Source: Treponemataceae bacterium
Lineage (GTDB): Bacteria; Spirochaetota; Spirochaetia; Treponematales; Treponemataceae
Length of the DNA stretch: 64,000 bases
Direction of reading: 5' to 3'
Assembly: GCA_045599005.1 (NCBI GenBank)
Contig: JAZRVF010000002.1
Span: 19,317-83,316 of the forward strand
The notes beneath the pieces are model-generated. The model made no database searches, was not told the origin of the DNA, and worked only from the letters and a program-made list of their open reading frames with translations. A program made the translations under genes and the position numbers. This document shows, piece by piece, positions 43,243-64,000 of the stretch. The first letter of the stretch is position 1; every line of letters starts with the position of its first letter.

Positions 43243-43253
43243 ATACTCAACTT

Positions 43254-43337
43254 GCCCAGATGGTGGAATTGGTAGACACGCTAGTTTCAGGTACTAGAGC
43301 CTTCACGGGCGTGCAAGTTCAAGTCTTGTTCTGGGCA
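43254..43337 (+). tRNA. tRNA-Leu (anticodon CAG), class II with long variable arm
   Basis: Acceptor stem GCCCAGA/TCTGGGC with discriminator A. D-arm GTGGAATTGGTAGACAC. Anticodon arm CTAGT-TTCAGGT-ACTAG. Long variable arm. T-arm GCAAG-TTCAAGT-CTTGT. No CCA is encoded. Confidence 0.9.
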
Positions 43338-43341
43338 ACTT

Positions 43342-51344: not shown

Positions 51345-52217
51345 ATGAAGAAAAAATATGACGAACTGACTTTTGTTGATGATTTTCTTTTCTCTCTGAT
51401 CATGCAGGACGAGGAGATCTGCAAGGGAGTGATTGAGGTGCTTCTCGGGATCCGGGCTGACCACATCGAGTATGTGAACACCCAGCAGGAGAAGAAGTTT
51501 GATGTGGAGGCCCATGGTGTGCGTTTTGACGTGTACATTAAGGACAGTGACAGGATCTTTGACATTGAGATCCAGACTGAGGTCAATGACGGGCTTCTTA
51601 AGCGGGGCAGGTATTATCAGACGATGATCGATATGGACTCTTTCTATGCCGGGCGTGATTATACGGAACTGAAGGAGTCCTACGTGATCTTCATCTGTCT
51701 TGATGATCCCTTTGACCTGGAGTATCCGGTATACACATTCAAACGGGGCATTGTGGAGGCACCGCCTGAAACAGTGTTTGAATATGATGACGAAACGAAC
51801 ATTGTGTTTTATAATGCGGGAGAGTGGGCCAAGTCTGAAAAGCCGGAACTCAGGAAGTTCCTGAGATATCTGAAGACCAGTTCTGTTGCAGAGGAAAGCC
51901 CGCTGGTCAGCAGGATAGAGACTGCTGTCCGGCATTCAAAGCGGAATGAGAAATGGAGGCGGAACTTTATGACACTGGCCATGAAACTTGACGAGGCGCG
52001 TGCGGAAGGACGCGAGAAAGGACGCAAGGAAGGACTGCTGGAAGGACGCGAGAAAGGTCTGCTGGAAGGGGCGGCTGCTCAGAATGCTGAGGTTGCCCGG
52101 CGGCTGGTTGCCGATGGTGTGTCAGATGATCTTGTCTGCAAGTATACAGGGCTATCTCTCCGGGAAGTGGAGGAACTTAGGAGCTCTGCTTCATGTCCGG
52201 CATTCAAAGCGGAATGA
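51345..52217 (+). CDS. Rpn-family recombination-promoting nuclease / putative transposase (PD-(D/E)XK, TIGR01784-like)
   Basis: …LTFVDDFLFSLIM…, …RFDVYIKDSDRIFDIEIQ… (a D…E-x-Q/K nuclease core), …GRYYQTMI…, and a C-terminal EGREKG-repeat tail with an HTH-like LVADGVSDDLVCKYTGLSLREVEEL. Confidence 0.7.
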   Translation: MKKKYDELTFVDDFLFSLIMQDEEICKGVIEVLLGIRADHIEYVNTQQEKKFDVEAHGVRFDVYIKDSDRIFDIEIQTEVNDGLLKRGRYYQTMIDMDSFYAGRDYTELKESYVIFICLDDPFDLEYPVYTFKRGIVEAPPETVFEYDDETNIVFYNAGEWAKSEKPELRKFLRYLKTSSVAEESPLVSRIETAVRHSKRNEKWRRNFMTLAMKLDEARAEGREKGRKEGLLEGREKGLLEGAAAQNAEVARRLVADGVSDDLVCKYTGLSLREVEELRSSASCPAFKAE

Positions 52218-52449
52218 GAAATGGAGGCGGAACTTTATGACACTGGCCATGAAACTTGACGAGGCGCGTGCGGAAGGACGCGAGAAAGGTCTGCTGGAAG
52301 GTCGCAAGGAAGGACTGCTGGAAGGGGCGGCTGCGGTTGCCCGGCGGCTGGTTGCCGATGGTGTGTCAGATGATCTTGTCTGCAAGTATACAGGGCTATC
52401 TCTCCAGGAAGTGGAGGAACTTAGGGACACCGCTATCACAGAGCAGTGA
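51927..52449 (+). repeat. Tandem direct duplication (~268 + ~255 bp) of the Rpn C-terminal module
   Basis: GTCCGGCATTCAAAGCGGAATGAGAAATGGAGGCGGAACTTTATGACACTGGCCATGAAACTTGACGAGGCGCGTGCGGAAGGACGCGAGAAAGG occurs at both 51927 and 52195. The copies differ by indels in the EGR(E/K)KGLLEG mini-repeat region and by a 12-nt segment. Confidence 0.9.
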
Positions 52450-52603: not shown

Positions 52604-52632
52604 TTGCAATCAAATCCGATAAGTAATACTAT
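52604..52632 (+). promoter_or_regulatory. Putative promoter of the ATPase/TOPRIM-like pair (short or absent leader)
   Basis: TTGCAA (52604-52609), a 17-nt spacer, TACTAT (52627-52632). ATG 52639 lies only 6 nt downstream and has no SD. Confidence 0.35.
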
Positions 52633-52638
52633 GTAAAT

Positions 52639-53895
52639 ATGATAAAGTCTTTTTCTGCTTCGAATTATAAAAACATAGAAGCCGATGATCTTGAATTCGG
52701 TAAGGTAAATATTCTTATTGGTCCAAACAATGTAGGTAAGACAAATTTCATTCAGGCTGTTTCTTTTCTGTCTCAGGTTCTCAGAAAAACTGCAGAGCCC
52801 AACGGAAATTCCTGTTTTCTCAGTCATCTTGGTGATCTGGGATGGTCGCGGATACTGAAAAAAGGTGCTGATTCAAGAGTTGTTTCTTTTAAGTGGGATA
52901 TAGAGATCGGCTCCCAACGGCTTTCTTATGTTTTTGATTTTAATGTGGGAATAAATTCTTTTGAGGATTTCAGGATCATCAAAGAAGAGCTGACAGAATC
53001 TTTTACGAGAGGCCAATACGCTGAACCCTATAATTATTTTAAATGTCATTCCCAGTCAATAGGACAGGGTGTTTTTTCCTCAGCAACAAAAAAAGGTCAG
53101 GCTAACCGGCGCATTCAGTTTGAACTGGACAGTCATGAAACAATTTTTAAACAGTTTAAGGATATTCTGATTGCGAATGAGGAAATTTATGATGATCCAC
53201 TGGTCAGAAAAAATGTCGGCGAACTGGTGAAAAAGATAGAAGATTATTTTGCCCGTTTCTGCTGCTGTTCCTGTGCCCAGCTGAATCTTCAGAAAATCAG
53301 GGAATCTGTTCCTCTTGTCAGTCATGACACTTTTCTTAAGTCGGACGGTTCGAACTTTACTTCAATCTATAATCTGTTCAAATCCCGTAATCTTAACTGG
53401 CACATAGATTATGTTGAAAGAATGAAACAGCTTATGCCGGATCTGAAACTGGCGGACGTTGTCAGCGAATTTGAAAAACTTTGTTTTAAGCTCTCCTTCG
53501 GGGACGGAACCTTTGATCTGTCGGAGCTTTCTGACGGAACAATAAAAGCCCTTGTCCTCAACCTGCTCATAAACATGCCCCACGAGGAATCAAAGTCCTT
53601 GCTTGCGATTGACGAGCCTGAATCAAATCTGCACCCTGCCTGGCAGAAGGTTGTTGGACAGTGGATCCTGAATTCCAATTCTTTCAGTCAATGTTTTATC
53701 AGTACCCATTCTCCTGATTTTCTCGATTCCTTTACAGAAGATTTCAAGACCGGCAAAGTGGATGTGTTTGTTTTTTCAGCAGAAGGAAAAATCAGGAACA
53801 TTTCCTACGACAGCATAAAGGAAGATCTGGGAAATTGGGAACTTGGTGACCTGTACAGAACAAACGATCCTGCACTTGGTGGCTGGCCGTGGTAG
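52639..53895 (+). CDS. ABC/SMC-like AAA_15/AAA_21-type ATPase (OLD/AriA/PtuA-like ATPase module)
   Basis: N-terminal …LEFGKVNILIGPNNVGKTNFIQAV (Walker A aa 28-35), a long inserted helical region, signature-like LSDGTIKAL, Walker B LLAIDEPESNLHP, and STHSPDFLD (H-loop). Confidence 0.75.
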   Translation: MIKSFSASNYKNIEADDLEFGKVNILIGPNNVGKTNFIQAVSFLSQVLRKTAEPNGNSCFLSHLGDLGWSRILKKGADSRVVSFKWDIEIGSQRLSYVFDFNVGINSFEDFRIIKEELTESFTRGQYAEPYNYFKCHSQSIGQGVFSSATKKGQANRRIQFELDSHETIFKQFKDILIANEEIYDDPLVRKNVGELVKKIEDYFARFCCCSCAQLNLQKIRESVPLVSHDTFLKSDGSNFTSIYNLFKSRNLNWHIDYVERMKQLMPDLKLADVVSEFEKLCFKLSFGDGTFDLSELSDGTIKALVLNLLINMPHEESKSLLAIDEPESNLHPAWQKVVGQWILNSNSFSQCFISTHSPDFLDSFTEDFKTGKVDVFVFSAEGKIRNISYDSIKEDLGNWELGDLYRTNDPALGGWPW

Positions 53896-54719
53896 ACAGA
53901 GAGTTTGTCCCCTGTTTTTTTACCGGCGGCTATACTGAAGCCGGAGAGATGCAGCAGTTTCTCAGAAAGATCAATGACAGATTTTCTTACAGACAGTGTT
54001 TCCCGAATAAAACAAAGAAAAGAAAGGGAATGCCGAAAGAAATCTCTTCCGAATTCAGTGGTCTTACCGGGGATTCTCTGATTGAAAAAGTTGTAAGCAT
54101 TCTGGAAAAACATAAGACGGATGAGGAATATTCATCATGCAGATTTCTGATAATTGAGGATGATCTTGATTTTCGCTTCAAGAATATGGATGAAGAACAG
54201 AAGAAAGAAGATCTGGAAGCGACTGTTCAGAAAATTCAGAAGGTTCTGCCTGGTGTGAAAGTTCTGTTCCTGTTTGCCTGCCCGGAAATAGAATCCTGGT
54301 TTATTGCCGATTGGAATAATGGTTTCGGTTGTGTAAGTGAAGATTCTCCTTTTCTGAGTAATCTGAAAAATAAAACGAAGAAAATGTTTCTCCATGAATT
54401 GAAGCTTGAGATTGATGAAACGCTGCTGAAAGGATGCAATGGTAATCCGGAAGAATTTCCAGAGGTGAATGAGGATTCGGTAAAATTGAGTGAAGCAATC
54501 CAGGGATTTGTAAAGACAGATGTTCCCAGCCGTATAAAGAGTAACAATTCTTCTGTTTTTTCAGAAATATCAGCAGCGGAAGACATCTGTTACTCAAAAA
54601 GAAGACACGGTTCCTTCATGCTGAGGTGCATAAAACCGGAGGAAGTGAAAAAACACTGCCGGCTGTACTTTGCGGGGTTCTATGAGGAGCTGAGAGGAAG
54701 GGAAAAGGGAAAAGGCTGA
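53889..54719 (+). CDS. TOPRIM-like / DUF4276-type protein (putative nuclease partner of the ATPase)
   Basis: The GTG start overlaps the ATPase stop (GTGGTAG). FFTGGYTEAGE (N-terminal Glu), FLIIEDDLD (acidic DxD-like) and ACPEIESWFIADW appear in the order seen in DUF4276/DUF4435/OLD-TOPRIM modules. Family call is by eye only. Confidence 0.5.
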   Translation: MVDREFVPCFFTGGYTEAGEMQQFLRKINDRFSYRQCFPNKTKKRKGMPKEISSEFSGLTGDSLIEKVVSILEKHKTDEEYSSCRFLIIEDDLDFRFKNMDEEQKKEDLEATVQKIQKVLPGVKVLFLFACPEIESWFIADWNNGFGCVSEDSPFLSNLKNKTKKMFLHELKLEIDETLLKGCNGNPEEFPEVNEDSVKLSEAIQGFVKTDVPSRIKSNNSSVFSEISAAEDICYSKRRHGSFMLRCIKPEEVKKHCRLYFAGFYEELRGREKGKG

Positions 54720-54792: not shown

Positions 54793-55998
54793 ATGATCAA
54801 GCGTGAAATCTCAGAACAGATTGCAACTTATATGACCCAGTATTTTGCAGTCACAGTTTTTGGTCCCCGTCAATGCGGAAAGACTACACTGGCAAAAAAT
54901 CTGTTCAGTGAATTCTCCTATGCGAATCTTGAAGATATAAACACAAGAATTCTGGCAAAGGAAGATCCGGAAGAATTTTTCACACGTTTTCCAGAACCTG
55001 TGATTATTGATGAAATTCAACGAGTACCGGAACTTTTAAGCACAGTTCAGGTCAGGATCGACAGATTCAGAAAAAAAGGGCAGTACATCATTACAGGAAG
55101 TCAGCAGATTTCATTAAAAAGTTCCATTTCACAGTCTCTTGCCGGCCGTACTGCCATAGTTCAAATGCAGGCACTTTCAATGCACGAGCTCAAGACAGCT
55201 GGTATTGAAATGGAAAGGGATGTCCAGCTTGTATCTGGCTTTATGCCCTATCTTTTTACTCAAAGTGGTCTTTCGCCTTTTGATTACTATAAAAACTATG
55301 TAAATACTTATCTCGAACGTGATATCGCACAGATTGGTGCCGTTCAGGATTTAACAAGATTCAGGAAATTTATGAGACTGCTTGCAGGAAGAATTGGTCA
55401 GCTTGTAAACAATTCCGCAATTGCACAGGAAGTTGGTGTTTCCAGCGTTACAATCGGTTCCTGGATCTCGATACTGGAGTCTTCTCATATTATTTTTGTT
55501 CTGCAGCCATGGTATATAAACAGAACCAGCCAGATAGTAAAAACCCCTAAGATATATTTTTGCGATACAGGCCTTGCCGCATATCTTCTTGAAATCGAAA
55601 GTCCATCCCAGATGCAGCGGGATCCTCTTATGGGAAATCTTTTTGAAAATCTTGTTTTCCTGGAAGCATTAAAAACCAGACTGAACACAGGCTGCGAACC
55701 TGATTTATATTTTTTTAGGAACAGCAAGGGCTTGGAAGTGGATATTCTGCTTTCGGAACGTAACAGACTTGAACTTTTTGAAATAAAAAGCGGTAAAGCA
55801 ATCAATGCGGAATTTACGGCAAATATGAAAAAGTTTTCACAATTATACAGTGATCATATAACTGACTCGGAAACCAAAGGAACAGTAATTTACAGCGGTG
55901 AAAATTACCTGAATGTGAACGGATACGAGTATCTGAATTTTCATGAGATTCATAGGAAGTTTATGAGAAAAGAAGAAAAGTTTACATTGGAATTTTGA
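54793..55998 (+). CDS. AAA+ ATPase of the AAA_14 + DUF4143 (COG1373) family
   Basis: …FGPRQCGKTTLAKNLF… (Walker A), …VIIDEIQRVPELL… (Walker B), and a C-terminal …PKIYFCDTGLAAYLL… typical of DUF4143. Confidence 0.8.
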   Translation: MIKREISEQIATYMTQYFAVTVFGPRQCGKTTLAKNLFSEFSYANLEDINTRILAKEDPEEFFTRFPEPVIIDEIQRVPELLSTVQVRIDRFRKKGQYIITGSQQISLKSSISQSLAGRTAIVQMQALSMHELKTAGIEMERDVQLVSGFMPYLFTQSGLSPFDYYKNYVNTYLERDIAQIGAVQDLTRFRKFMRLLAGRIGQLVNNSAIAQEVGVSSVTIGSWISILESSHIIFVLQPWYINRTSQIVKTPKIYFCDTGLAAYLLEIESPSQMQRDPLMGNLFENLVFLEALKTRLNTGCEPDLYFFRNSKGLEVDILLSERNRLELFEIKSGKAINAEFTANMKKFSQLYSDHITDSETKGTVIYSGENYLNVNGYEYLNFHEIHRKFMRKEEKFTLEF

Positions 55999-56016
55999 GA
56001 TGGGGTTTTTGACATG

Positions 56017-56025
56017 TGGTATAAT
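56017..56025 (+). promoter_or_regulatory. Extended -10 promoter element upstream of the glycan cluster
   Basis: TGGTATAAT (TGn + TATAAT) at 56017-56025, about 120 nt upstream of the wHTH gene. Confidence 0.3.
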
Positions 56026-56146
56026 AAGGACGTTTTTTAAGCATTTCATTGTTTATAAAATTTTGTATTTGCATTAAAATGTTCATAGAAGTGAACGATA
56101 GTTCTGTTCATATAGCAATTTAGATATTTATAGAGTGGGTGTGTAA

Positions 56147-56674
56147 ATGGAGCAGGATTTAGCGACTTTACAAGTTATTTCGGAAACATTGAAAGAAGAT
56201 CCTCTGGCAAGTCAGAGAACGTTGGCAAAAAAGGCGAATATGTCTTTAGGTTTAATGAATGCTATTTTGCAGCGTTTTGTTGAACGTGGCTGGATTATGT
56301 TGACGAATGTAAATGGTCGTAAACTTGCTTATGCGATTACTGCTGAGGGAATATCGGAACTTACAAAAAGAGGTAAATCTTTTGCTTTACGAACATTTAA
56401 ATTGGCAAATGTTTACAGTGAAGCATTTTGTAAGAGATTAATCGAAGAAAAAGCTTCTGGTAAAACAAAAGTGATTCTATATGGTGATAGCTATATAAAA
56501 TTTATTATCAAATATGCCTGTAGTGAAGTAGGCCTAGGGTTTGAGCAAAAAGAAACAACGGCAAAAGTTTTGGCAGAGGAAGTTTGTCTTGCTGGTGAAT
56601 TGAATGATGATGATGTTCAGAAGAAATTGATTGAAAATGGTTGTTTTAATTTAGTTGAGATGGTTTCAAAATGA
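56147..56674 (+). CDS. Winged helix-turn-helix (MarR-like) regulator at head of polysaccharide cluster
   Basis: …DPLASQRTLAKKANMSLGLMNAILQRFVERGWI…GRKLAYAITAEG… is a wHTH. The C-terminal ~90 aa is of unknown function. Confidence 0.6.
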   Translation: MEQDLATLQVISETLKEDPLASQRTLAKKANMSLGLMNAILQRFVERGWIMLTNVNGRKLAYAITAEGISELTKRGKSFALRTFKLANVYSEAFCKRLIEEKASGKTKVILYGDSYIKFIIKYACSEVGLGFEQKETTAKVLAEEVCLAGELNDDDVQKKLIENGCFNLVEMVSK

Positions 56675-56729
56675 AGAAAACCAATAAGGGATTGAGCTTG
56701 AATAAATCGTGTAATTTGGGTGGAATATA

Positions 56730-58181
56730 ATGTTATCCATAAAGAGAAAAAAGGATTATTTTTCCCTCACAATTGCGTTTTTTTGCGTAAGTGTAATGTG
56801 TGGAGAAGTTTTGTATATAGCAAATAATAATATAATAAGTCTCACAACAGGTTTTATAATTGGGTATATTGCTATCTTTTTGCGTCAACTTTTAATTGGA
56901 AATTTATATTCCCTATATAGTTTTTACCTCATAACATCAGCTTTTTTTATGTATGATAAATTTATTGTTGGTCCTATACTTGGAAAAGGCGTAATGTCGA
57001 TAAATTTTGCTGGAAGATATGTTTTTCCAGATTGGGTTGGAGAAACTTTTGTATTCATAGCAGCAGTCTCTGTTTTAACCATAGATATATTATATACAAT
57101 CTATAATGTGAAGAGTAATTATTTAATTGGTACTTCAGGAGAAAAGTCAATCTATGATAGTGATAGTTTTATAAGAACTGATAATTTTTATTTCAAATTG
57201 GGTCTTATAATAATGGGTTGCTTTATAGTACCGCTTGTATACAAAATTATTTTGCAGGTACAGCATCAAAAGTCTTTTGCTAATTATGCAATTGCAAATT
57301 TCACTGGACAGGAAGATAACACTCAATACCCATGGTGGACAAAAGGTTCTGGAACATTTTTTTATATTGGATTTTTACTATTTGTTTATTCTTTTCCAAC
57401 AGTAAAAAAAGCTAAATATGGATATTTTCTTTTCTTTGTAATGATGTTAGTTACAGCATTAAAGGGAGGAAGAGCTTTTTTCTTTACTTATATACTTACC
57501 TTACCATTGTTATATAAAAAATTATACAATAAAAAGTTATCCAAAAGTGCTTTAGTATTATTAGCAGTATTATGTATTTGTGCTGCAATTCTTTTAGATA
57601 ATTTCAGATCAAATGTCAGTGGCAAATTGGAAAGTGATTTTTTGTTGGAGTTTTTAGATGGGCAAACCACTACGATGGGAGTTCCATATGTGTATATTGA
57701 AAATCATGGAGATCTGCCATATAAACATTTTCCATTTATTTTTAATTATCTGTTAAATCCAATAAGAAGTAAGTTTATTAGTTTTGGTAATAATGCATCA
57801 GATATATTAAAACAATCAAACAATTATGGTGGAATAGCACTTTACATGTTAAATCCTGATGCACAAGCAATGGGAGGAGGTCTAGGGTTAAATTTCTTAA
57901 CTGAGGCCTATGATTGTTTTGGTTATTTTGGAGTGTTCTTTTGGTCTGTAATCTTAGCGATAATAATAAAATCAATAGATTGCATGAAATATACTTCCAA
58001 AAATAGAAAATTACTTGTTTTTACAATATTGATATATCAGTATATTCTTTTTCTTCCTCGTCATTCTTTTTTTGGAATAACAGATCATATCAAATATGTA
58101 ATAATGTTTTATATATTGTATTTATTTCTTGAATGCAGAAAATACATTGGAAAAATTAGATTGAAAGGAGATTCTATATGA
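56730..58181 (+). CDS. O-antigen/EPS polymerase (Wzy-like) multi-pass membrane protein
   Basis: 483 aa with at least 10 TM helices, very AT-rich codons, and a large loop region; located in a glycosyltransferase cluster. Confidence 0.55.
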   Translation: MLSIKRKKDYFSLTIAFFCVSVMCGEVLYIANNNIISLTTGFIIGYIAIFLRQLLIGNLYSLYSFYLITSAFFMYDKFIVGPILGKGVMSINFAGRYVFPDWVGETFVFIAAVSVLTIDILYTIYNVKSNYLIGTSGEKSIYDSDSFIRTDNFYFKLGLIIMGCFIVPLVYKIILQVQHQKSFANYAIANFTGQEDNTQYPWWTKGSGTFFYIGFLLFVYSFPTVKKAKYGYFLFFVMMLVTALKGGRAFFFTYILTLPLLYKKLYNKKLSKSALVLLAVLCICAAILLDNFRSNVSGKLESDFLLEFLDGQTTTMGVPYVYIENHGDLPYKHFPFIFNYLLNPIRSKFISFGNNASDILKQSNNYGGIALYMLNPDAQAMGGGLGLNFLTEAYDCFGYFGVFFWSVILAIIIKSIDCMKYTSKNRKLLVFTILIYQYILFLPRHSFFGITDHIKYVIMFYILYLFLECRKYIGKIRLKGDSI

Positions 58182-59080
58182 AACTTCAAATCTCGGAACT
58201 TAAAATGAAATTAAAAATTTTAGTATGTTGTCATAAACAAAGTGAACTTCCAGATAATATTGATAATGTTTTTCTTCCAATTCATGTTGGAGCTGCTATT
58301 TCTGATTTAAATCTTGGAATTCAAAGGGATGATCAGGTAAATGGAGAGTCTTGTGAAAATATTAGTAATAAGAATAAAAATTATTGTGAGCTAACAGCTT
58401 TGTATTGGGCTTGGAAAAATATTCGTAATGTTTATCCAACTGTCGAATATATTGGATTAAATCATTATCGTCGTTTCTTTAATTTTGATACACCTTCTGC
58501 TCATGATTGGAATAGGAAACCAGTTTATGATGTAAAAAATTATAAGATTGATTATCGAAGATTGAGTAAAATATTAGAATGCGACATGGGGATAATGGCT
58601 AAGAAAAAAGTTTATCCTTATAGTCTTGCAGTAGATTATTCTGTAGCCCATGTGAGTGATGATCTTAGGATCTTAGGAGAAATTATAAAAGACAATTATA
58701 CAGATTATTACCCAGCGTTTGTGAAATATTTTTATTGTAATAATAAATTATCACATTTTAATATGTTTATTTGGAAATATGATGATTTTACCAAATATTG
58801 TGAATGGCTTTTTGGTATTCTTTTCGAGGCAGAGAAAAGAATTGATATTTCAAATTATAGTGCTGTTCAGTCACGTATTTGGGGATATATGGCTGAACGA
58901 TTATTAAATGTTTATATAGAAAAAAATGGTATGAAAATGAAGTTTTTTCCTGTAAATATATATAATGATACAACAGAAAGCAATTTTAAATATTGGGCAA
59001 ATAGAATACGATATAATATTTCTTTTTTACTTTCTAAACCTAGATTTAGAAATGTATGGATTGAAAAAAATGAAGAATGA
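58178..59080 (+). CDS. DUF4422-domain glycosyltransferase (Galf-transferase-like)
   Basis: KILVCCHKQSELP…FLPIHVGAAIS…NISNKNKNYCELTALYWAWKNI…YIGLNHYRRFF is a strong DUF4422 signature. Confidence 0.8.
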   Translation: MKLQISELKMKLKILVCCHKQSELPDNIDNVFLPIHVGAAISDLNLGIQRDDQVNGESCENISNKNKNYCELTALYWAWKNIRNVYPTVEYIGLNHYRRFFNFDTPSAHDWNRKPVYDVKNYKIDYRRLSKILECDMGIMAKKKVYPYSLAVDYSVAHVSDDLRILGEIIKDNYTDYYPAFVKYFYCNNKLSHFNMFIWKYDDFTKYCEWLFGILFEAEKRIDISNYSAVQSRIWGYMAERLLNVYIEKNGMKMKFFPVNIYNDTTESNFKYWANRIRYNISFLLSKPRFRNVWIEKNEE

Positions 59081-59095
59081 TATTGGAGTTTTTTT

Positions 59096-60046
59096 ATGGA
59101 TGAAAGGGGATTAACTTCAAGTGTGTTAATGGCTACATACAACGGTATGAAATTTCTCATCCCACAGCTGGATTCAATTAGACTTCAAACGGTACCAGCT
59201 GATGAGGTTGTTATTTGTGATGATGGTTCAACCGATGAAACTGTTGAAACAATAAAAGCGTATATTGAAAAATATAACCTTGTTTCTTGGCATGTTTCTA
59301 AAAATAGTGAAAATAAGGGTTGGATGTTGAATTTTATGGATATGGCGATAAATTGCCATACTGATTTAGTGTTCTTCTCTGATCAGGATGATATTTGGAG
59401 TCATAAAAAAATAGAACAAATGAAAAATACTATGTCTGAAAATCCAAACATTGATTTGTTATATTCGAACTATAAACTTATCGAAAATATTTCTGCTTCA
59501 GATGAACGAGGAGAGTGGAAAGTTAATGCAAAACCTAAAATTAGACATAATTCAGATATTTTTAAATATTCAATGGTCCGTATGGGATGTGCGTTCTGTT
59601 TAAGAAAAACTTTTATAGATGAAATTAAAGGATTGTACTGGGAGGGGTGTCCTCATGATTCTTTTTTCTATCGAGCAGCCTTAGTTAAAGGTTCCTTATA
59701 TAATCTTAACTCTATACTTATTTACCATAGAATACATGGCAATAATGCAAGTGCTATGACTTTGGCTGAGCAAAAGTCAGCTGATATGTTGACCTATAAA
59801 CTTGGTAGTGTTCATCATATGATAGAATATGCAAATTTGATAGGAAATACAAATGCGGTTGGTATTTTAAATAAAGCCCTAGAATGGAATGAAAAGAGAA
59901 TTGTCTTTTATGAGAAGCCAACTATAAAAAAATATTTAAGGCTTTTGAAATATTTTAAATACTATTTTAGATTTAGGACTTTTCTTAAAGAATTATTTAT
60001 TGCCTATGCAAATAAAGACGGGGGTATAAATGAAACAGCAAGTTGA
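59096..60046 (+). CDS. Glycosyltransferase family 2
   Basis: SVLMATYNGMKFLIPQLDSI…VVICDDGSTDETV…FSDQDDIW… (DxD motifs) is GT-A fold, WbbL/rhamnosyltransferase-like. Confidence 0.8.
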   Translation: MDERGLTSSVLMATYNGMKFLIPQLDSIRLQTVPADEVVICDDGSTDETVETIKAYIEKYNLVSWHVSKNSENKGWMLNFMDMAINCHTDLVFFSDQDDIWSHKKIEQMKNTMSENPNIDLLYSNYKLIENISASDERGEWKVNAKPKIRHNSDIFKYSMVRMGCAFCLRKTFIDEIKGLYWEGCPHDSFFYRAALVKGSLYNLNSILIYHRIHGNNASAMTLAEQKSADMLTYKLGSVHHMIEYANLIGNTNAVGILNKALEWNEKRIVFYEKPTIKKYLRLLKYFKYYFRFRTFLKELFIAYANKDGGINETAS

Positions 60047-60869
60047 TGAGGAATATTTAGCAAAATTAAGAAAAATACAATGTTTACAACTAAAAATTGC
60101 AAAAGAAATAAAGAGGGTTTGTGAAGAGAACAGAATATCGTATTTTTTAATTGGAGGAACTTTATTAGGGGCTGTTCGACATAAAGGTTTTATTCCATGG
60201 GATGATGATCTAGATATTGGAATGAGACGATGTGATTATGATCGGTTTATTGAGATATGCAAGACAGAATTGGGTAAAGAGTTTTTTTTGCAAACTATAG
60301 ATTCGGATCTTTCATATGGAAATTTTTTTGCTAAAATTCGACTTAATGGAACTCACTTTAGAGAGGAGGTTGCTTCTATTATTAATGGAAATGATGGAAT
60401 ATATGTGGATATATTTCCATTTGATAACACAACGGAAAATGAACAAAAACGCAAAAGATATATAAAACATATAAATACCCTTACTAATCTCTATCGATAT
60501 AAGAAAGGTTACAAGATGTGGAATAAGGATTTCCTGCATACTTGTTATTTTTATCTTTTAAAATTTCGTGCTATGTTTAAAACTTATGCCTCTTTGGAAA
60601 AACATGTGAATGAAATTGTTTTCAGTTCAGAAAACACAAGTTATGAATATATGATTAATTATTTCGACTGTACACAGAGAAAGGAGTATCTTAGCATAGA
60701 AGGGTTAAATAATTTAATTGATTATGCATTTGAAGATGATTATTTTAAGGGACCTTGTGATGCGAAAGAGTATCTTTTAAGGACTTATGGAGATTATATG
60801 CAATTACCTCCTGAGGATAAGCGGTACAATCGTCATAATATAATAAGTATTGATTTTGGAAATTATTAG
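60030..60869 (+). CDS. LicD-family phosphotransferase
   Basis: …ISYFLIGGTLLGAVRHKGFIPWDDDLDIGM… and …DIFPFD… are LicD hallmarks. Confidence 0.85.
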   Translation: MKQQVDEEYLAKLRKIQCLQLKIAKEIKRVCEENRISYFLIGGTLLGAVRHKGFIPWDDDLDIGMRRCDYDRFIEICKTELGKEFFLQTIDSDLSYGNFFAKIRLNGTHFREEVASIINGNDGIYVDIFPFDNTTENEQKRKRYIKHINTLTNLYRYKKGYKMWNKDFLHTCYFYLLKFRAMFKTYASLEKHVNEIVFSSENTSYEYMINYFDCTQRKEYLSIEGLNNLIDYAFEDDYFKGPCDAKEYLLRTYGDYMQLPPEDKRYNRHNIISIDFGNY

Positions 60870-60870
60870 A

Positions 60871-61938
60871 ATGATATTTGATGATTATGAAATAACAGAA
60901 TACAAAAAAATTGTTCAAGTAAGAACGGAATGGGAAATGTTGTTTTTATTACATAATACTTCGTATTGTCAATCATATAACTTTATGAGTTATATTGAGA
61001 GGTTTTGTCAGGAAAATGTATTTAAGAAACTTTTTTGGGGAAAGTTACGATATATACGAATAAAAAGAAATAATGAATGTTTGCTGATAGCCCCGTTTCT
61101 TTTGAGAGGTCAAAAAGCTTATTTGTTAGGAGAGAAAGCTCCTGTGGATTACTTTGGTTTTGTCTATGCAAATAATTCCATTGAAAGCTTGGAAATTCTT
61201 TTAAGGTATTTAAAATTTAAATATAGAATTAAGCATATAAATTTTGGACTTCTGCCAGTTTCACAAACAAGAATAATGGATTTATTCTATGCTCTTTCAA
61301 CTGAAAAATATCATATAGAAACATCGGTGGGGCAAAATGCAGCCTTAGAATATAGTTTTAAGAGTTTTGATGAGTATTTTAAATCTCTTTCAAAAAGTGT
61401 TCGACAAAATTATAGGACTGCAATTAACAGAAGTAAAACTGATGGTATTGAATTTTCTTTCGAATTTTATTCAGAAATTCCGAATTCTGTTATAAAAAGA
61501 TTTTTGATAGATCACAAAAATCGCTTAAATTCACGCTACTCAAATGGTCGTCCAAAAATAATAGAAACATTACTTTCTCCATATAGAAACATTATTTATG
61601 GAAAATGGAGAAGGGACCAACCGATATATTGGTCTATGAAAGAAAATAAAGATCATATTTTGTGTGTTGCATATTTAAATAAAAAACCTGCAGCTTATTT
61701 TTATGGTCTTATTTCAGAGTCACTAGGAAAGAGAAGAATTAATTTTTTAAGGGCTTGTGTGAATGTAGAAGAGTTTGGAAAATATTCTCCAGGAATAGTC
61801 TTAGGAATTGAATTAATAAAACATTTTGGAAATAACTTTGATATATATGATTTTACGATTGGTAATGAACAATATAAATATCAGTTAGGATGTAAGGACT
61901 TTGAAAACCTATGGACAACAGTTGATATATTAAACTAA
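60871..61938 (+). CDS. GNAT-fold acetyltransferase (BioF2-like/Acetyltransf_6, FemAB-like)
   Basis: The ORF track starts at TTG 60850; ATG 60871 follows the LicD stop. …FDEYFKSLSKSVRQNYRTAINRSKTDGIEF… is typical of PF13480-type proteins in EPS clusters. Confidence 0.45.
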   Translation: MIFDDYEITEYKKIVQVRTEWEMLFLLHNTSYCQSYNFMSYIERFCQENVFKKLFWGKLRYIRIKRNNECLLIAPFLLRGQKAYLLGEKAPVDYFGFVYANNSIESLEILLRYLKFKYRIKHINFGLLPVSQTRIMDLFYALSTEKYHIETSVGQNAALEYSFKSFDEYFKSLSKSVRQNYRTAINRSKTDGIEFSFEFYSEIPNSVIKRFLIDHKNRLNSRYSNGRPKIIETLLSPYRNIIYGKWRRDQPIYWSMKENKDHILCVAYLNKKPAAYFYGLISESLGKRRINFLRACVNVEEFGKYSPGIVLGIELIKHFGNNFDIYDFTIGNEQYKYQLGCKDFENLWTTVDILN

Positions 61939-61958
61939 TCAAAAGGAGTAAAAAGCGT

Positions 61959-63032
61959 ATGTTGAATTTTACTGTTGGACCTGTAATGTCAGATTCGAGT
62001 ATTTTGAAAGAAGGTGGAAAATCAGCTCCTTATTTTAGAACAACAGAATTTTCTGAAATAATGATTGAGAATGAAAAATTGATGCTTGAATTTTTAAATG
62101 CACCAAAAAACAGTAGATGTATATTTCTTACAGCATCAGGAACTGGAGCAATGGAATCTTGTGTAATGAATCTCCTGACAAGTAAAGATAAAGTTCTTGT
62201 AGTAAATGGGGGCAGTTTTGGGCAGAGATTTGTTGAAATGTGTCAACTTCATAAATTGAATTATACAGAGATTGTATGTGAATTTGGAAAGCAAATAAAG
62301 AAAGAAGAGTTAGACTTATTTGAAGGAAAGGGATATTCAGCTTTTCTCGTAAATATGGGTGAAACCTCATCTGGTATACTCTATGATATGAAATTAATAT
62401 CAGAATTTTGCAAAAAAAATAATATTTTTCTTATCATAGATGCAATTAGTACTTTTATTGCGGATGAAATAGATATGTCAGAATTGAATGCTGGTGCTAT
62501 TATAACTGGATCCCAAAAAGCATTAGCAGTTCATCCAGGTATTTCTATTATAGCTCTTTCTTCCTTTGCCGTGAATCGTGTAGAAAATAATCCTGAAGTT
62601 TGTATGTATTTAAGTATGAAACAAGCGTTAAAAAATGGAGAAAGGGGGCAAACTCCTTGGACTCCTGCAGTAACAATATTACTTGAAATTAATAAACGAC
62701 TAAAGTCCATAAAAGAAAATGGAGGAATAGTTGTTGCAAGAAATCAAATTAAAAACATCGCAAATGGTTTTAGAAAATTTATAAGAGATTATCCTTTTGA
62801 GTTTGTAGCTGAGTCAATGTCAAATACTGTTACATCTTTAAGACCTTGTAATACTAGCGCTAAATTGATTATTGAGACTATGAAAACTGATTATGGTATA
62901 TGGTTATGTCCTAATGGTGGTGAAAAGGCTGAAACAGTTTTTCGAGTTGGGCACATTGGTAATATTACGGAGTCGGATAATATGAAATTGATGGATGCAT
63001 TTATCGATATGAGTAATAGGGGCTTATTATAA
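61959..63032 (+). CDS. Class V (AGAT/PhnW/SerC-like) PLP-dependent aminotransferase
   Basis: …FTVGPVM…, …FLTASGTGAMES…, …IIDAISTF… and …ITGSQKAL (PLP Lys) are pattern matches to class V aminotransferases. Confidence 0.7.
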   Translation: MLNFTVGPVMSDSSILKEGGKSAPYFRTTEFSEIMIENEKLMLEFLNAPKNSRCIFLTASGTGAMESCVMNLLTSKDKVLVVNGGSFGQRFVEMCQLHKLNYTEIVCEFGKQIKKEELDLFEGKGYSAFLVNMGETSSGILYDMKLISEFCKKNNIFLIIDAISTFIADEIDMSELNAGAIITGSQKALAVHPGISIIALSSFAVNRVENNPEVCMYLSMKQALKNGERGQTPWTPAVTILLEINKRLKSIKENGGIVVARNQIKNIANGFRKFIRDYPFEFVAESMSNTVTSLRPCNTSAKLIIETMKTDYGIWLCPNGGEKAETVFRVGHIGNITESDNMKLMDAFIDMSNRGLL

Positions 63033-63496
63033 TGATAGGAAATAAAACAGTAGTATATACAAGTGGAACATTTGATATGCTTCATGCTAATCATATTAAA
63101 ATGATTGAATATGCACGTTCTCTTGGAGATCTTTTGATAGTTGGTGTTAATACAGACGAATTAGTTGCTTCTTATAAATCAGAACCAATTATACCATTTG
63201 ATGAACGTATTGCTCTTGTGAAAGCCTTAAAGTATCCAGATATCGTAATTCCTCAAAAATCATTGAATCATGCAGATAAAGTAAAAAAATTACATTTTGA
63301 TATTTTTGTCGTAGGTGATGATTGGGCAGGTAAATATGATTACCTCGAAGAACAAGGTGTTACGGTTGTTTATTTTCCATATGGACAAGGGATTAGTTCT
63401 ACGGAATTAAAGAATAGAATATATGATAGATATAAGAAACTTCATGATGAAGCTGATAATCATTTTCCATTAGATACAGATGTTACGAAGGGATAA
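63032..63496 (+). CDS. Cytidylyltransferase-family protein (TagD/glycerol-3-phosphate cytidylyltransferase-like)
   Basis: VVYTSGTFDMLHANHIKMIEYA (HxGH-type motif) and …LIVGVNTDELV…. Start overlaps the previous stop (TAATG). Confidence 0.75.
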   Translation: MIGNKTVVYTSGTFDMLHANHIKMIEYARSLGDLLIVGVNTDELVASYKSEPIIPFDERIALVKALKYPDIVIPQKSLNHADKVKKLHFDIFVVGDDWAGKYDYLEEQGVTVVYFPYGQGISSTELKNRIYDRYKKLHDEADNHFPLDTDVTKG

Positions 63497-63497
63497 T

Positions 63498-64000
63498 GTG
63501 AAAAAATATGATTATATTGTTGTAGGGGCAGGACTGTATGGTGCAACTTTTGCACGACTTGCTGCTGATAAGGGATTAAAATGCCTCGTTCTTGATCGAC
63601 GGACTCATATTGCTGGAAATGTTTATACCGAACCTGTTGAAGCAGTTCCAAAAGGGGGAGAAATAAATGTTCATAAGTATGGAGCACATATTTTTCATAC
63701 AAATAACGAAGAAGTTTGGAGATTTGTGAATAAATATGCTAAATTTAATCGCTTTACTAATTCTCCTGTAGCTAGATATAAGGATGAGCTTTATTCTTTG
63801 CCGTTTAGTATGTGGACTTTCACAACGATGTGGCCGAATGTAAGAACTCCCGAACAGGCTGCAAAAAAAATTGCTGAACAAAAATCTGATGTTGAAAGAT
63901 TATTAAGGGAAAAGGGACAGGTTGATACAGAGGGAAATGTATTTGCAAAAAACTTAGAAGAGCAAGCTTTGTTATTAGTGGGAAGAGATATATATGAAAA
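63498..64000 (+). CDS. glf: UDP-galactopyranose mutase (partial, runs off right edge)
   Basis: Hand-translated from GTG 63498: KKYDYIVVGAGLYGATFARLAADKGLKCLVLDRRTHIAGNVYTE…VHKYGAHIFHTNNEEVWRFVNKYAKFNRFTNSPVARYKDELYSLPFSMWTF…NLEEQALLLVGRDIYE. Not in the ORF track because no stop lies in the window. Confidence 0.85.
   Translation, partial: MKKYDYIVVGAGLYGATFARLAADKGLKCLVLDRRTHIAGNVYTEPVEAVPKGGEINVHKYGAHIFHTNNEEVWRFVNKYAKFNRFTNSPVARYKDELYSLPFSMWTFTTMWPNVRTPEQAAKKIAEQKSDVERLLREKGQVDTEGNVFAKNLEEQALLLVGRDIYE

Follow-up and report, generated by a model that had tools for sequence, protein, structure and literature searches.

Pairs of an ABC ATPase with a TOPRIM-type protein, as found in OLD, Gabija and PARIS, rank among the immune modules most widely distributed in bacteria. 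In PARIS, whose mechanism is the best worked out of these, an ATPase scaffold senses the trigger and releases the nuclease, and the system is typically carried on phage satellites. Within this group, the DUF4276 branch, comprising Hma-embedded candidate 01 (HEC-01) and Mad3-Mad4, is the one for which we know of no trigger, substrate or stand-alone phenotype. HEC-01, an ABC ATPase with a TOPRIM protein, was originally discovered inside Hma systems; Payne et al. catalogued it and built PADLOC models for it (bioRxiv 10.1101/2024.01.29.577857). Mad3 and Mad4 belong to MADS, in which deletion of mad3 or mad4 impairs defence (Maestri et al.), and 'MADS3-4' is listed among the ABC ATPase + TOPRIM systems in the PARIS paper (PMC11464382). 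Here we analysed a two-gene locus (52639-54719) in a 64,000-nucleotide stretch of contig JAZRVF010000002.1 from a Treponemataceae bacterium, hereafter the window. The original prediction for this locus held that the pairing of an AAA_21 ATPase with a DUF4276-type protein had no experimentally assigned function; this overstates its novelty, as the pairing had already been published as HEC-01 and as Mad3-Mad4 in MADS. On balance, we favour the reading that the pair is an ATPase-controlled, metal-dependent nuclease cassette directed against invading genetic elements.

The open reading frame (ORF) listing and the raw sequence bore out the two ORFs first reported, including a second start codon that lies at the end of the first gene:

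52639-53895, + strand: gene 1, ABC-type ATPase (AAA_21/AAA_15; HEC-01A-like), ATG start, 418 residues.
53889-54719, + strand: gene 2, DUF4276-like protein (HEC-01B-like), predicted metal-dependent nuclease effector, GTG start, 276 residues.
53878-53895, + strand: coupling junction, ATPase codons G-G-W-P-W-stop (GGTGGCTGGCCGTGGTAG), holding a Shine-Dalgarno-like GGTGG and the GTG of gene 2.

The genes overlap by 7 nucleotides, with the GTG of gene 2 inside GTGGTAG. Across about 27 related loci, the junction follows the consensus GGAGGnTGGCC(A/G/T)TGGTA(G/A), which encodes an ATPase C terminus of ...G-G-W-P-W-stop and sets GGAGG 6 nucleotides 5' of the gene 2 start (ATG, GTG or TTG). The Shine-Dalgarno sequence of gene 2 is thus formed by the Gly-Gly codons of the ATPase's GGWPW ending; the window combines a GTG start with a weaker GGTGG in place of GGAGG. 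Gene 2 homologues open with a conserved Met-Val at the junction start. Conservation of residues 1-20 among the homologues, together with recurrence of the junction in about 27 loci, supports the upstream GTG as the start of gene 2. Genes 1 and 2 are translationally coupled via this conserved 7-nucleotide overlap.

Linkage of the two genes extends to other genomes. Metagenome contigs carrying homologues and a scan of 185,579 species genomes provided 39 related loci, and tblastn of the two proteins against these loci showed that in 36 of them the ATPase homologue ends precisely where the gene 2 homologue begins. One exception (L022) is a contig that ends immediately upstream of the gene 2 homologue. 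In the other two, what is left of gene 2 is truncated at its 5' end, and the ORF immediately upstream does not encode an ABC ATPase: one remnant (L025, 9992-10738) has lost about the first 30 residues, including the candidate TOPRIM glutamate E17 discussed below, and the other (L038, 10001-10282) keeps residues 128-268 only. Truncation of both unpartnered copies fits selection against an intact effector without its partner. Pairwise identities of the ATPase and of gene 2 were correlated over 24 loci (Mantel r=0.95, reached in 0 of 2000 permutations), and the partners have therefore been inherited together, not swapped. The pair is sporadic, with 31 loci in the 185,579 species genomes.

Profile matches and a complete set of conserved motifs make gene 1 a clear member of the AAA_21/AAA_15 group of ABC-type ATPases (OLD/PARIS/Gabija), the assignment made originally. 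Both Pfam matches lie above their cut-offs (AAA_21, 1e-24, 88.6 bits against 27; AAA_15, 7e-17, 62.5 bits against 32.1, residues 1-361). Every motif quoted earlier for either protein is present at its residues and is conserved, in 28 homologues from related loci for gene 1 and in 135 family members for gene 2. Those of gene 1 are as follows:

52720-52743, + strand: Walker A, GPNNVGKT (residues 28-35, including K34); G28, N30, N31, G33 and K34 at least 90% conserved.
53527-53541, + strand: ABC signature-like LSDGT (residues 297-301); S298, G300 and T301 at least 90% and L297 at least 70% conserved.
53599-53622, + strand: Walker B and D-loop, LLAIDEPE (residues 321-328); DEPE at least 90% conserved.
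53701-53715, + strand: H-loop, STHSP (residues 355-359); THSPD at least 90% conserved.

The best PADLOC model for gene 1 was HEC-01A (PDLC04178, 3.2e-32, residues 2-375), and 7 of the 9 HEC-01A models listed for it scored 1e-16 or better. Further matches were to AriA (5.7e-28), AbiLi (5.6e-25), NsnB (1.2e-20) and mad3 (9.8e-15), as well as to PDC-M07A, Old, GajA and PtuA. The NCBIfam MAD3 equivalog NF047739 was matched at 4.5e-24, with 85.4 bits versus a cut-off of 420. Sequence matches in the PDB, to GajA (5e-9), Thermus OLD (6p74, 9e-7), PtuA and AriA (8ux9/8v45), span the C-terminal ABC motifs only.

By its profile matches, gene 2 is a DUF4276-like protein and, weakly, a HEC-01B-like one. 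The first part of this assignment, already made in the original prediction, is supported by a match to DUF4276 (PF14103) at E=1.8e-6, in which residues 14-143 fall on profile positions 3-112 of 192 and the C-terminal 80 profile positions are unmatched. The same profile was matched by 16 of 26 gene 2 homologues (E<0.01), and precomputed Pfam tags give PF14103 for three homologues (P0001, P0005 and P0028). The HEC-01B model PDLC04205 was matched by 17 of the 26; in all, seven different HEC-01B models were matched, with a best E-value of 1.2e-5. A word-indexed search of 5.8 billion proteins returned 31 clusters of the gene 2 family, and an exhaustive search of 1.84 billion proteins returned 300 representatives at E<=1e-3; at 50% identity, the clade amounts to about 300 representatives, mostly from gut and oral anaerobes.

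Conservation over the 135 family members picks out D91, D92, D94 and E133 as invariant, and E17, E135, W137, D141, E188, K199, S201 and K237 as conserved in at least 93% of sequences, a set made up, among its invariant residues, of acidic residues and Lys. The motifs quoted for gene 2 are FFTGGYTEAGE (10-20), FLIIEDDLD (86-94), ACPEIESWFIADW (130-142) and a ...CYSKRRHG... tail. An AlphaFold2 model built with 26 sequences (predicted local distance difference test score 88, predicted template-modelling score 0.87) places strands and helices in the order b1 (5-10), a1 (15-28), b2 (32-36), a2 (61-75), b3 (86-92), a3 (102-119) and b4 (124-130), after which the chain is all-helical to residue 272:

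53889-54323, + strand: N-terminal alpha/beta domain of gene 2 (residues 1-145), b1-a1-b2-a2-b3-a3-b4, a TOPRIM-like order in the AlphaFold2 model.
53937-53939, + strand: E17, candidate TOPRIM glutamate in the b1-a1 turn; Glu in 125 of 135 sequences, a gap in the other 10.
54159-54170, + strand: D91-D92-L-D94, DxD-type acidic motif at the end of b3; invariant in 135 of 135.
54282-54299, + strand: P132-E133-I-E135-S-W137, acidic pair just after b4 and before the helix at 135-140; E133 invariant, E135 and W137 99% conserved.
54324-54704, + strand: C-terminal all-helical domain of gene 2 (residues 146-272), with E188, K199, S201, Y235, K237 and G241.

Helices 161-272 were predicted with high confidence and pack into one body, and E188, K199, S201, Y235, K237 and G241 are 91-99% conserved family-wide. 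The C-terminal stretch of about 100 residues, regarded in the original prediction as an extension, is, by its conservation, an integral domain of the whole family, not an add-on. It had no Pfam or PDB match. By analogy, it is a helical domain that probably resembles the one beside the TOPRIM of OLD nucleases. In OLD, a helical domain follows the TOPRIM; its first helix gives T506 and E508 to metal B, and the catalytic K562 comes from a helix further along, so that the two-metal site is completed by acidic residues after the last TOPRIM strand and by a helical-domain Lys (PMC6755086). The position of E133 and E135 in gene 2 may parallel that of T506 and E508 in Burkholderia pseudomallei OLD. 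We infer that an OLD-like two-metal nuclease site could be built from both domains of gene 2.

These features suggest how the pair might work as an autonomous cassette of two genes, horizontally mobile and belonging to the 'ABC ATPase + TOPRIM-type nuclease' class. The two proteins would assemble into a complex, with the ATPase as its sensor and regulator. Gene 2 would be a two-metal nuclease: the Glu and DxD ligands would come from its N-terminal TOPRIM-like domain, whereas its helical domain would contribute the ligands of the second metal (E133/E135) together with a catalytic Lys (K199 or K237), as in OLD. Once it detected a phage or another invader, the ATPase would license or release the nuclease, which would then cut nucleic acid, either DNA as in OLD and Gabija or tRNA as in PARIS, and so stop the infection or the cell.

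Several results weigh against this reading. The DUF4276 score of gene 2 (28.8 bits) is under the gathering score of 30.2, and its own HEC-01B match is weak (PDLC04205, E=2.7e-4, 18.7 bits, residues 62-142); its one other PADLOC match, to Cas7b, is at noise level (E=0.011). A match this weak, limited to residues 62-142, indicates that the clade is poorly covered by existing HEC-01B models. Effector families other than DUF4276 and HEC-01B were not recovered for gene 2: searches of Pfam and PADLOC at E<=0.1 gave no DUF4435 or AriB match for gene 2, and none at E<=0.01 for its 26 homologues; profile searches gave no mad4 and no RloB match for gene 2 or the 26 homologues, and no match of gene 2 to Toprim_OLD (PF20469) in Pfam or to AbiLii in PADLOC. 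At the level of function, the one HEC-01 representative assayed in E. coli gave no phage protection (bioRxiv 10.1101/2024.01.29.577857). A scan of IMG/VR, and tblastn searches of plasmid and phage collections, detected no relative of the pair, in contrast to PARIS and Old, and its neighbours in 28 loci were not mainly defence genes.

Structural comparison also counts on this side. Foldseek searches with the full gene 2 model (PDB and BFVD) and with the N-terminal domain alone (PDB) returned nothing at E<=0.001. The top matches were to three-layer alpha/beta folds of a generic kind (KaiC/RadA, SGNH hydrolases including TesA, and the receiver-like domain of CpaE), with no TOPRIM near the top and the TOPRIM of DnaG listed at E=0.26 only. 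Sequence and profile searches of the gene 2 family against the PDB gave three irrelevant matches, all at E>0.3. Aligning the gene 2 profile (135 sequences) with a P2 Old TOPRIM alignment (115 sequences) by hhalign gave P=0.057 and a probability below 1%, as did (again below 1%) alignment with the single P2 Old sequence; a homologue search with the Old TOPRIM region alone found 5 fragments only. The position of the canonical TOPRIM 'vEG' Glu is Gly or Cys in the gene 2 family, and E17 lies four residues later. The non-significant hhalign alignment is collinear, placing T16-E17 on the KTE of Old VEGKTE, with E17 on the second Glu of that motif, and D92/D94 on the Old D-C-D. In B. pseudomallei OLD, the corresponding pair, E400 and E404, both serve metal sites (PMC6755086). 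The Menshen study placed DUF4276 in the TOPRIM superfamily (PMC12065111), HEC-01B was assigned as TOPRIM-type on structural grounds (bioRxiv 10.1101/2024.01.29.577857), and the published assignment includes a conserved metal site (PMC12065111; bioRxiv 10.1101/2024.01.29.577857). Because neither Foldseek nor hhalign gave significance, the basis of the TOPRIM assignment is this published work together with the order E...DxD of the motifs: the order of motifs that led to the original prediction of a TOPRIM partner stands, but the fold was not confirmed. Taken together, the N-terminal domain of gene 2 is probably TOPRIM-like.

The surroundings of the pair bear on all of its possible roles. The flanking genes first described were confirmed on the same strand: an Rpn family gene upstream (51345-52217; TIGR01784, 4.5e-29) and, downstream (54793-55998), a gene for an AAA_14 + DUF4143 protein (COG1373) that matches PADLOC PDC-S01 at 7e-94. 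The product of the latter also weakly matches CARF/PD-(D/E)xK-type models, and PDC-S01 is an untested defence candidate. The 3' end of the Rpn gene is tandemly duplicated, with 51926-52047 found again at 52194-52315 (92% identical) and 52086-52190 again at 52330-52434 (94%); it contains an internal 12/24-nucleotide GGAAGGACGCGAGAAAGG-type repeat that encodes an EGREKG motif, and the duplication yields a second ORF (51988-52449). The guanine-cytosine (GC) content of the pair is 40.8-40.9% against 45.2% in the core, about 4 points lower, so that the AT-richness claimed at the outset is real but mild. The pair sits between the core region, at about 45% GC, and a surface-glycan cluster at 28-32% GC. 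Within this cluster (56001-64000), GC falls sharply from the roughly 45% of the rest of the window; its genes encode Wzy, DUF4422, GT2, LicD, an aminotransferase and a cytidylyltransferase, and it is preceded by an HTH_24/MarR-like regulator (56147-56674). Such a low-GC cluster is characteristic of O-antigen or capsule-type loci that are exchanged horizontally.

Neighbours elsewhere were counted from simple ORF lists (a composition-based gene caller performed worse), using about 200 flanking ORFs from 28 loci. They fall into more than 130 Pfam families per side, and the commonest family accounts for at most 5 of about 100 flanking ORFs per side. DUF4143/AAA_14 genes adjoin the pair in only 2 of the 28 loci and are therefore not fixed partners. 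The defence-island context originally described is thin, given these highly variable neighbours and the position of the window pair at the edge of the 28-32% GC glycan cluster. Sporadic loci, diverse neighbours, lower GC and the Rpn and PDC-S01 flanks support mobile or accessory status of the cassette, and the overall picture is of a rare, autonomous cassette landing in variable chromosomal regions. Restriction-modification methylases lie near the pair in a few loci, and one homologous pair (L044, 1-13409) has a prophage-like or polymorphic-toxin context, with a reverse transcriptase (RVT_1) with DUF6273 and a Phage_connect_2 gene upstream, and an LHH toxin and a SUKH immunity gene downstream.

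We considered whether the pair could instead be a selfish, toxin-antitoxin-like addiction module, in which the ATPase restrains a nuclease toxin and the pair stabilises variable islands such as glycan or flagellin-glycosylation clusters, defence not being its primary role. The 5' truncation of both orphan gene 2 copies is as expected if an unpartnered nuclease is harmful, and tight translational coupling, same-strand placement inside glycan operons in several loci, the HEC-01 representative without an anti-phage phenotype and the Pfam description of AAA_21 as 'putative AbiEii toxin, Type IV TA system' (TA, toxin-antitoxin) all point the same way. However, toxin-antitoxin-like behaviour and abortive infection are compatible, as PARIS shows both; most loci lie outside glycan clusters; and the plasmid search, in a setting where addiction modules are frequent, yielded no copy of the pair. 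We regard addiction as the primary role as unlikely, while giving it some weight.

A related idea is that the pair is a distinct two-gene immune or addiction system tied to glycan and flagellin-glycosylation islands, with a re-modelled TOPRIM that has a shifted Glu and its own helical domain (E188, K199/S201, K237). Glycan genes were found near the pair in the window and in about 10 of 35 related loci by a seed-based scan. In five loci (L001, L004, L007, L008 and L042), the pair is placed inside a cluster for nonulosonic acid, flagellin glycosylation or another glycan and shares its strand, and four others are partial cases (L024, L027, L029 and L032). The surrounding genes include NeuB, CTP_transf_3, DegT, GT2, LicD, Wzy and radical SAM/SPASM; FliT is close by in L042, and in L004 gaps of only 46 nucleotides separate the pair from the flanking CMP-sugar synthetase and NeuB genes. 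On this reading, same-strand embedding in glycan clusters, often with operon-like spacing, would be the preferred setting in spirochaete-like and some clostridial genomes. About two-thirds of loci, mostly from Lachnospiraceae, have no glycan genes within 10 kb. The pattern is lineage-specific rather than general, since it is missing from most other loci, mainly those of Lachnospiraceae. A family-wide association with glycan clusters, suggested by the first five contexts, was rejected on the diversity of neighbours over 28 loci and the presence of glycan genes in only about 10 of 35. If this reading were correct, glycan embedding could link glycan phage-receptor variation to an abortive-infection nuclease, or could serve glycan-island stabilisation; we think it a slim prospect, a little below primary addiction.

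A further reading is that the genes form an accessory ATPase-nuclease sub-module that needs a neighbouring system, as Mad3-Mad4 do in MADS, the partner here perhaps being the Rpn or PDC-S01 (AAA_14-DUF4143) gene. Mad3 and Mad4 act within a larger system whose defence is impaired when either is deleted, HEC-01 was found embedded in Hma and was inactive when assayed alone, and the Rpn and PDC-S01 genes flank the window pair on its own strand. Yet no neighbour family is conserved over the 28 loci, the DUF4143/AAA_14 genes included; the scanned flanking genes of the window pair include no methyltransferase and no mad-like gene; and gene 1 scores far short of the MAD3 equivalog cut-off. Dependence on such a partner seems to us improbable.

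Gene 2 might also be a hydrolase other than a nuclease, built on a scaffold of the flavodoxin or SGNH type; one example would be an esterase for the glycans of neighbouring clusters. The best template-modelling (TM) scores of its N-terminal domain in Foldseek were to SGNH proteins (TesA 4jgg, probability 0.98, TM-score 0.41; 1jrl), SGNH esterases were also among the BFVD matches, and the pair has glycan genes near it both in the window and at about ten further loci. Against this, no Foldseek match was significant (E>=0.005), the invariant residues are acidic and Lys, the profile matches are to DUF4276 and HEC-01B, and the obligate partner is an OLD/PARIS-type ABC ATPase. Over the 135 family members, no His is conserved at 75% or more and no GDS-type Ser nucleophile motif occurs, which rules out the SGNH reading proper; SGNH, receiver-domain and RecA-like readings of gene 2 were all rejected, as the Ser/His triad and Walker A are missing from the conserved set. 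A hydrolase of this general kind is very improbable.

Equally remote is a housekeeping DNA repair or recombination pair of a RecF/SbcC-like ATPase with a nuclease, for although gene 1 matches SMC_N (5e-11) and RecF-family models via its N-terminal Walker A region, its RecF score is 34.8 versus a cut-off of 172, and the pair is thinly scattered (31 loci over 185,579 species genomes and 300 representatives over 1.84 billion proteins), variable in genomic context and atypical in GC. The addiction, sub-module, hydrolase and housekeeping readings are each less likely than the nuclease cassette.

Expression of the cassette in the window may start from a promoter-like element that was read by eye:

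52604-52632, + strand: promoter-like TTGCAA-17 nucleotides-TACTAT, 8 of 12 consensus matches, below the threshold of the promoter scanner.

The scanner reported no site upstream of gene 1. The -10 element (TACTAT) ends 6 nucleotides before the gene 1 ATG, and a Shine-Dalgarno sequence is absent, so a leaderless gene 1 transcript is possible; the promoter with almost no leader proposed originally thus keeps its spacing, at weak support. A 99% relative (L041) has an identical promoter-like region, likewise without a Shine-Dalgarno sequence, and in a Spirochaetaceae locus (L024) TATAAT lies equally far from the gene 1 start. Most other homologues carry a canonical GGAGG Shine-Dalgarno sequence ahead of gene 1. 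These arrangements suggest leaderless expression in some lineages, and the gene 1 mRNA may be leaderless in that of the window. At the locus itself, Rfam and tRNA scans gave no relevant match. The sole RNA gene detected in the window, tRNA-Leu(CAG) at 43253-43339, lies about 9 kb upstream of the pair and is not obviously an integration site.

With this locus, the DUF4276 branch gains a divergent and well-defined clade of gut and oral anaerobes. Our analysis yields a confident structural model of gene 2, invariant candidate catalytic residues and a conserved coupling junction, which together provide concrete mutants and constructs with which a DUF4276 effector could be tested biochemically for the first time. 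None of this alters the present view of defence systems, and the value of the locus is incremental.

How the pair relates to known systems can be read from its two genes in turn. PARIS likewise has a separate ABC ATPase (AriA) and a TOPRIM-type effector, and gene 1 matches AriA models and structures; however, its effector AriB is a DUF4435 TOPRIM tRNase, a family that gene 2 does not match, and PARIS is typically carried on phage satellites, whereas the window clade was not found in the phage and plasmid collections. OLD and GajA share their ABC ATPase motifs with gene 1, and OLD has the same layout of a TOPRIM followed by a helical domain, with the invariant residues of gene 2 in an analogous pattern. 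Unlike the fused ATPase and TOPRIM of OLD and GajA, the two parts are separate ORFs here, gene 2 has no significant sequence, profile or fold match to OLD, and the 'vEG' Glu position is not conserved in it. AbiL (AbiLi + AbiLii/RloB) resembles the pair in its ATPase, as gene 1 matches AbiLi, but not in its effector, as gene 2 has no RloB match. In Menshen, some NsnC proteins carry a DUF4276 effector domain (PMC12065111), and gene 1 matches NsnB; Menshen is, however, a three-gene system, and no NsnA or NsnC-type gene is adjacent here.

Nearer to the window pair, Mad3-Mad4 of MADS also couple an AAA_15/21 ABC ATPase with a DUF4276 protein, and gene 1 matches mad3 models in both PADLOC and NCBIfam (9.8e-15 and 4.5e-24). 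The differences are a MAD3 equivalog score far below its cut-off, a gene 2 family without a mad4 match, and the eight genes of MADS against a pair that appears to stand alone. HEC-01 shares most with it: two genes on one strand in which the ABC ATPase is followed by a small TOPRIM-type protein, HEC-01A as the best match of gene 1 and HEC-01B as the only PADLOC match of gene 2 above noise. It differs in that gene 2 is 276 residues long where the HEC-01B model PDLC04205 has about 213 positions, and in that the window pair lies outside any Hma system. Judged by its profile matches, the pair falls outside PARIS, AbiL, MADS and fused OLD and fits HEC-01 best, weakly so on the gene 2 side. On this evidence it is a divergent relative of the catalogued HEC-01, more distant from Mad3-Mad4, PARIS AriA/AriB, AbiL and split OLD.

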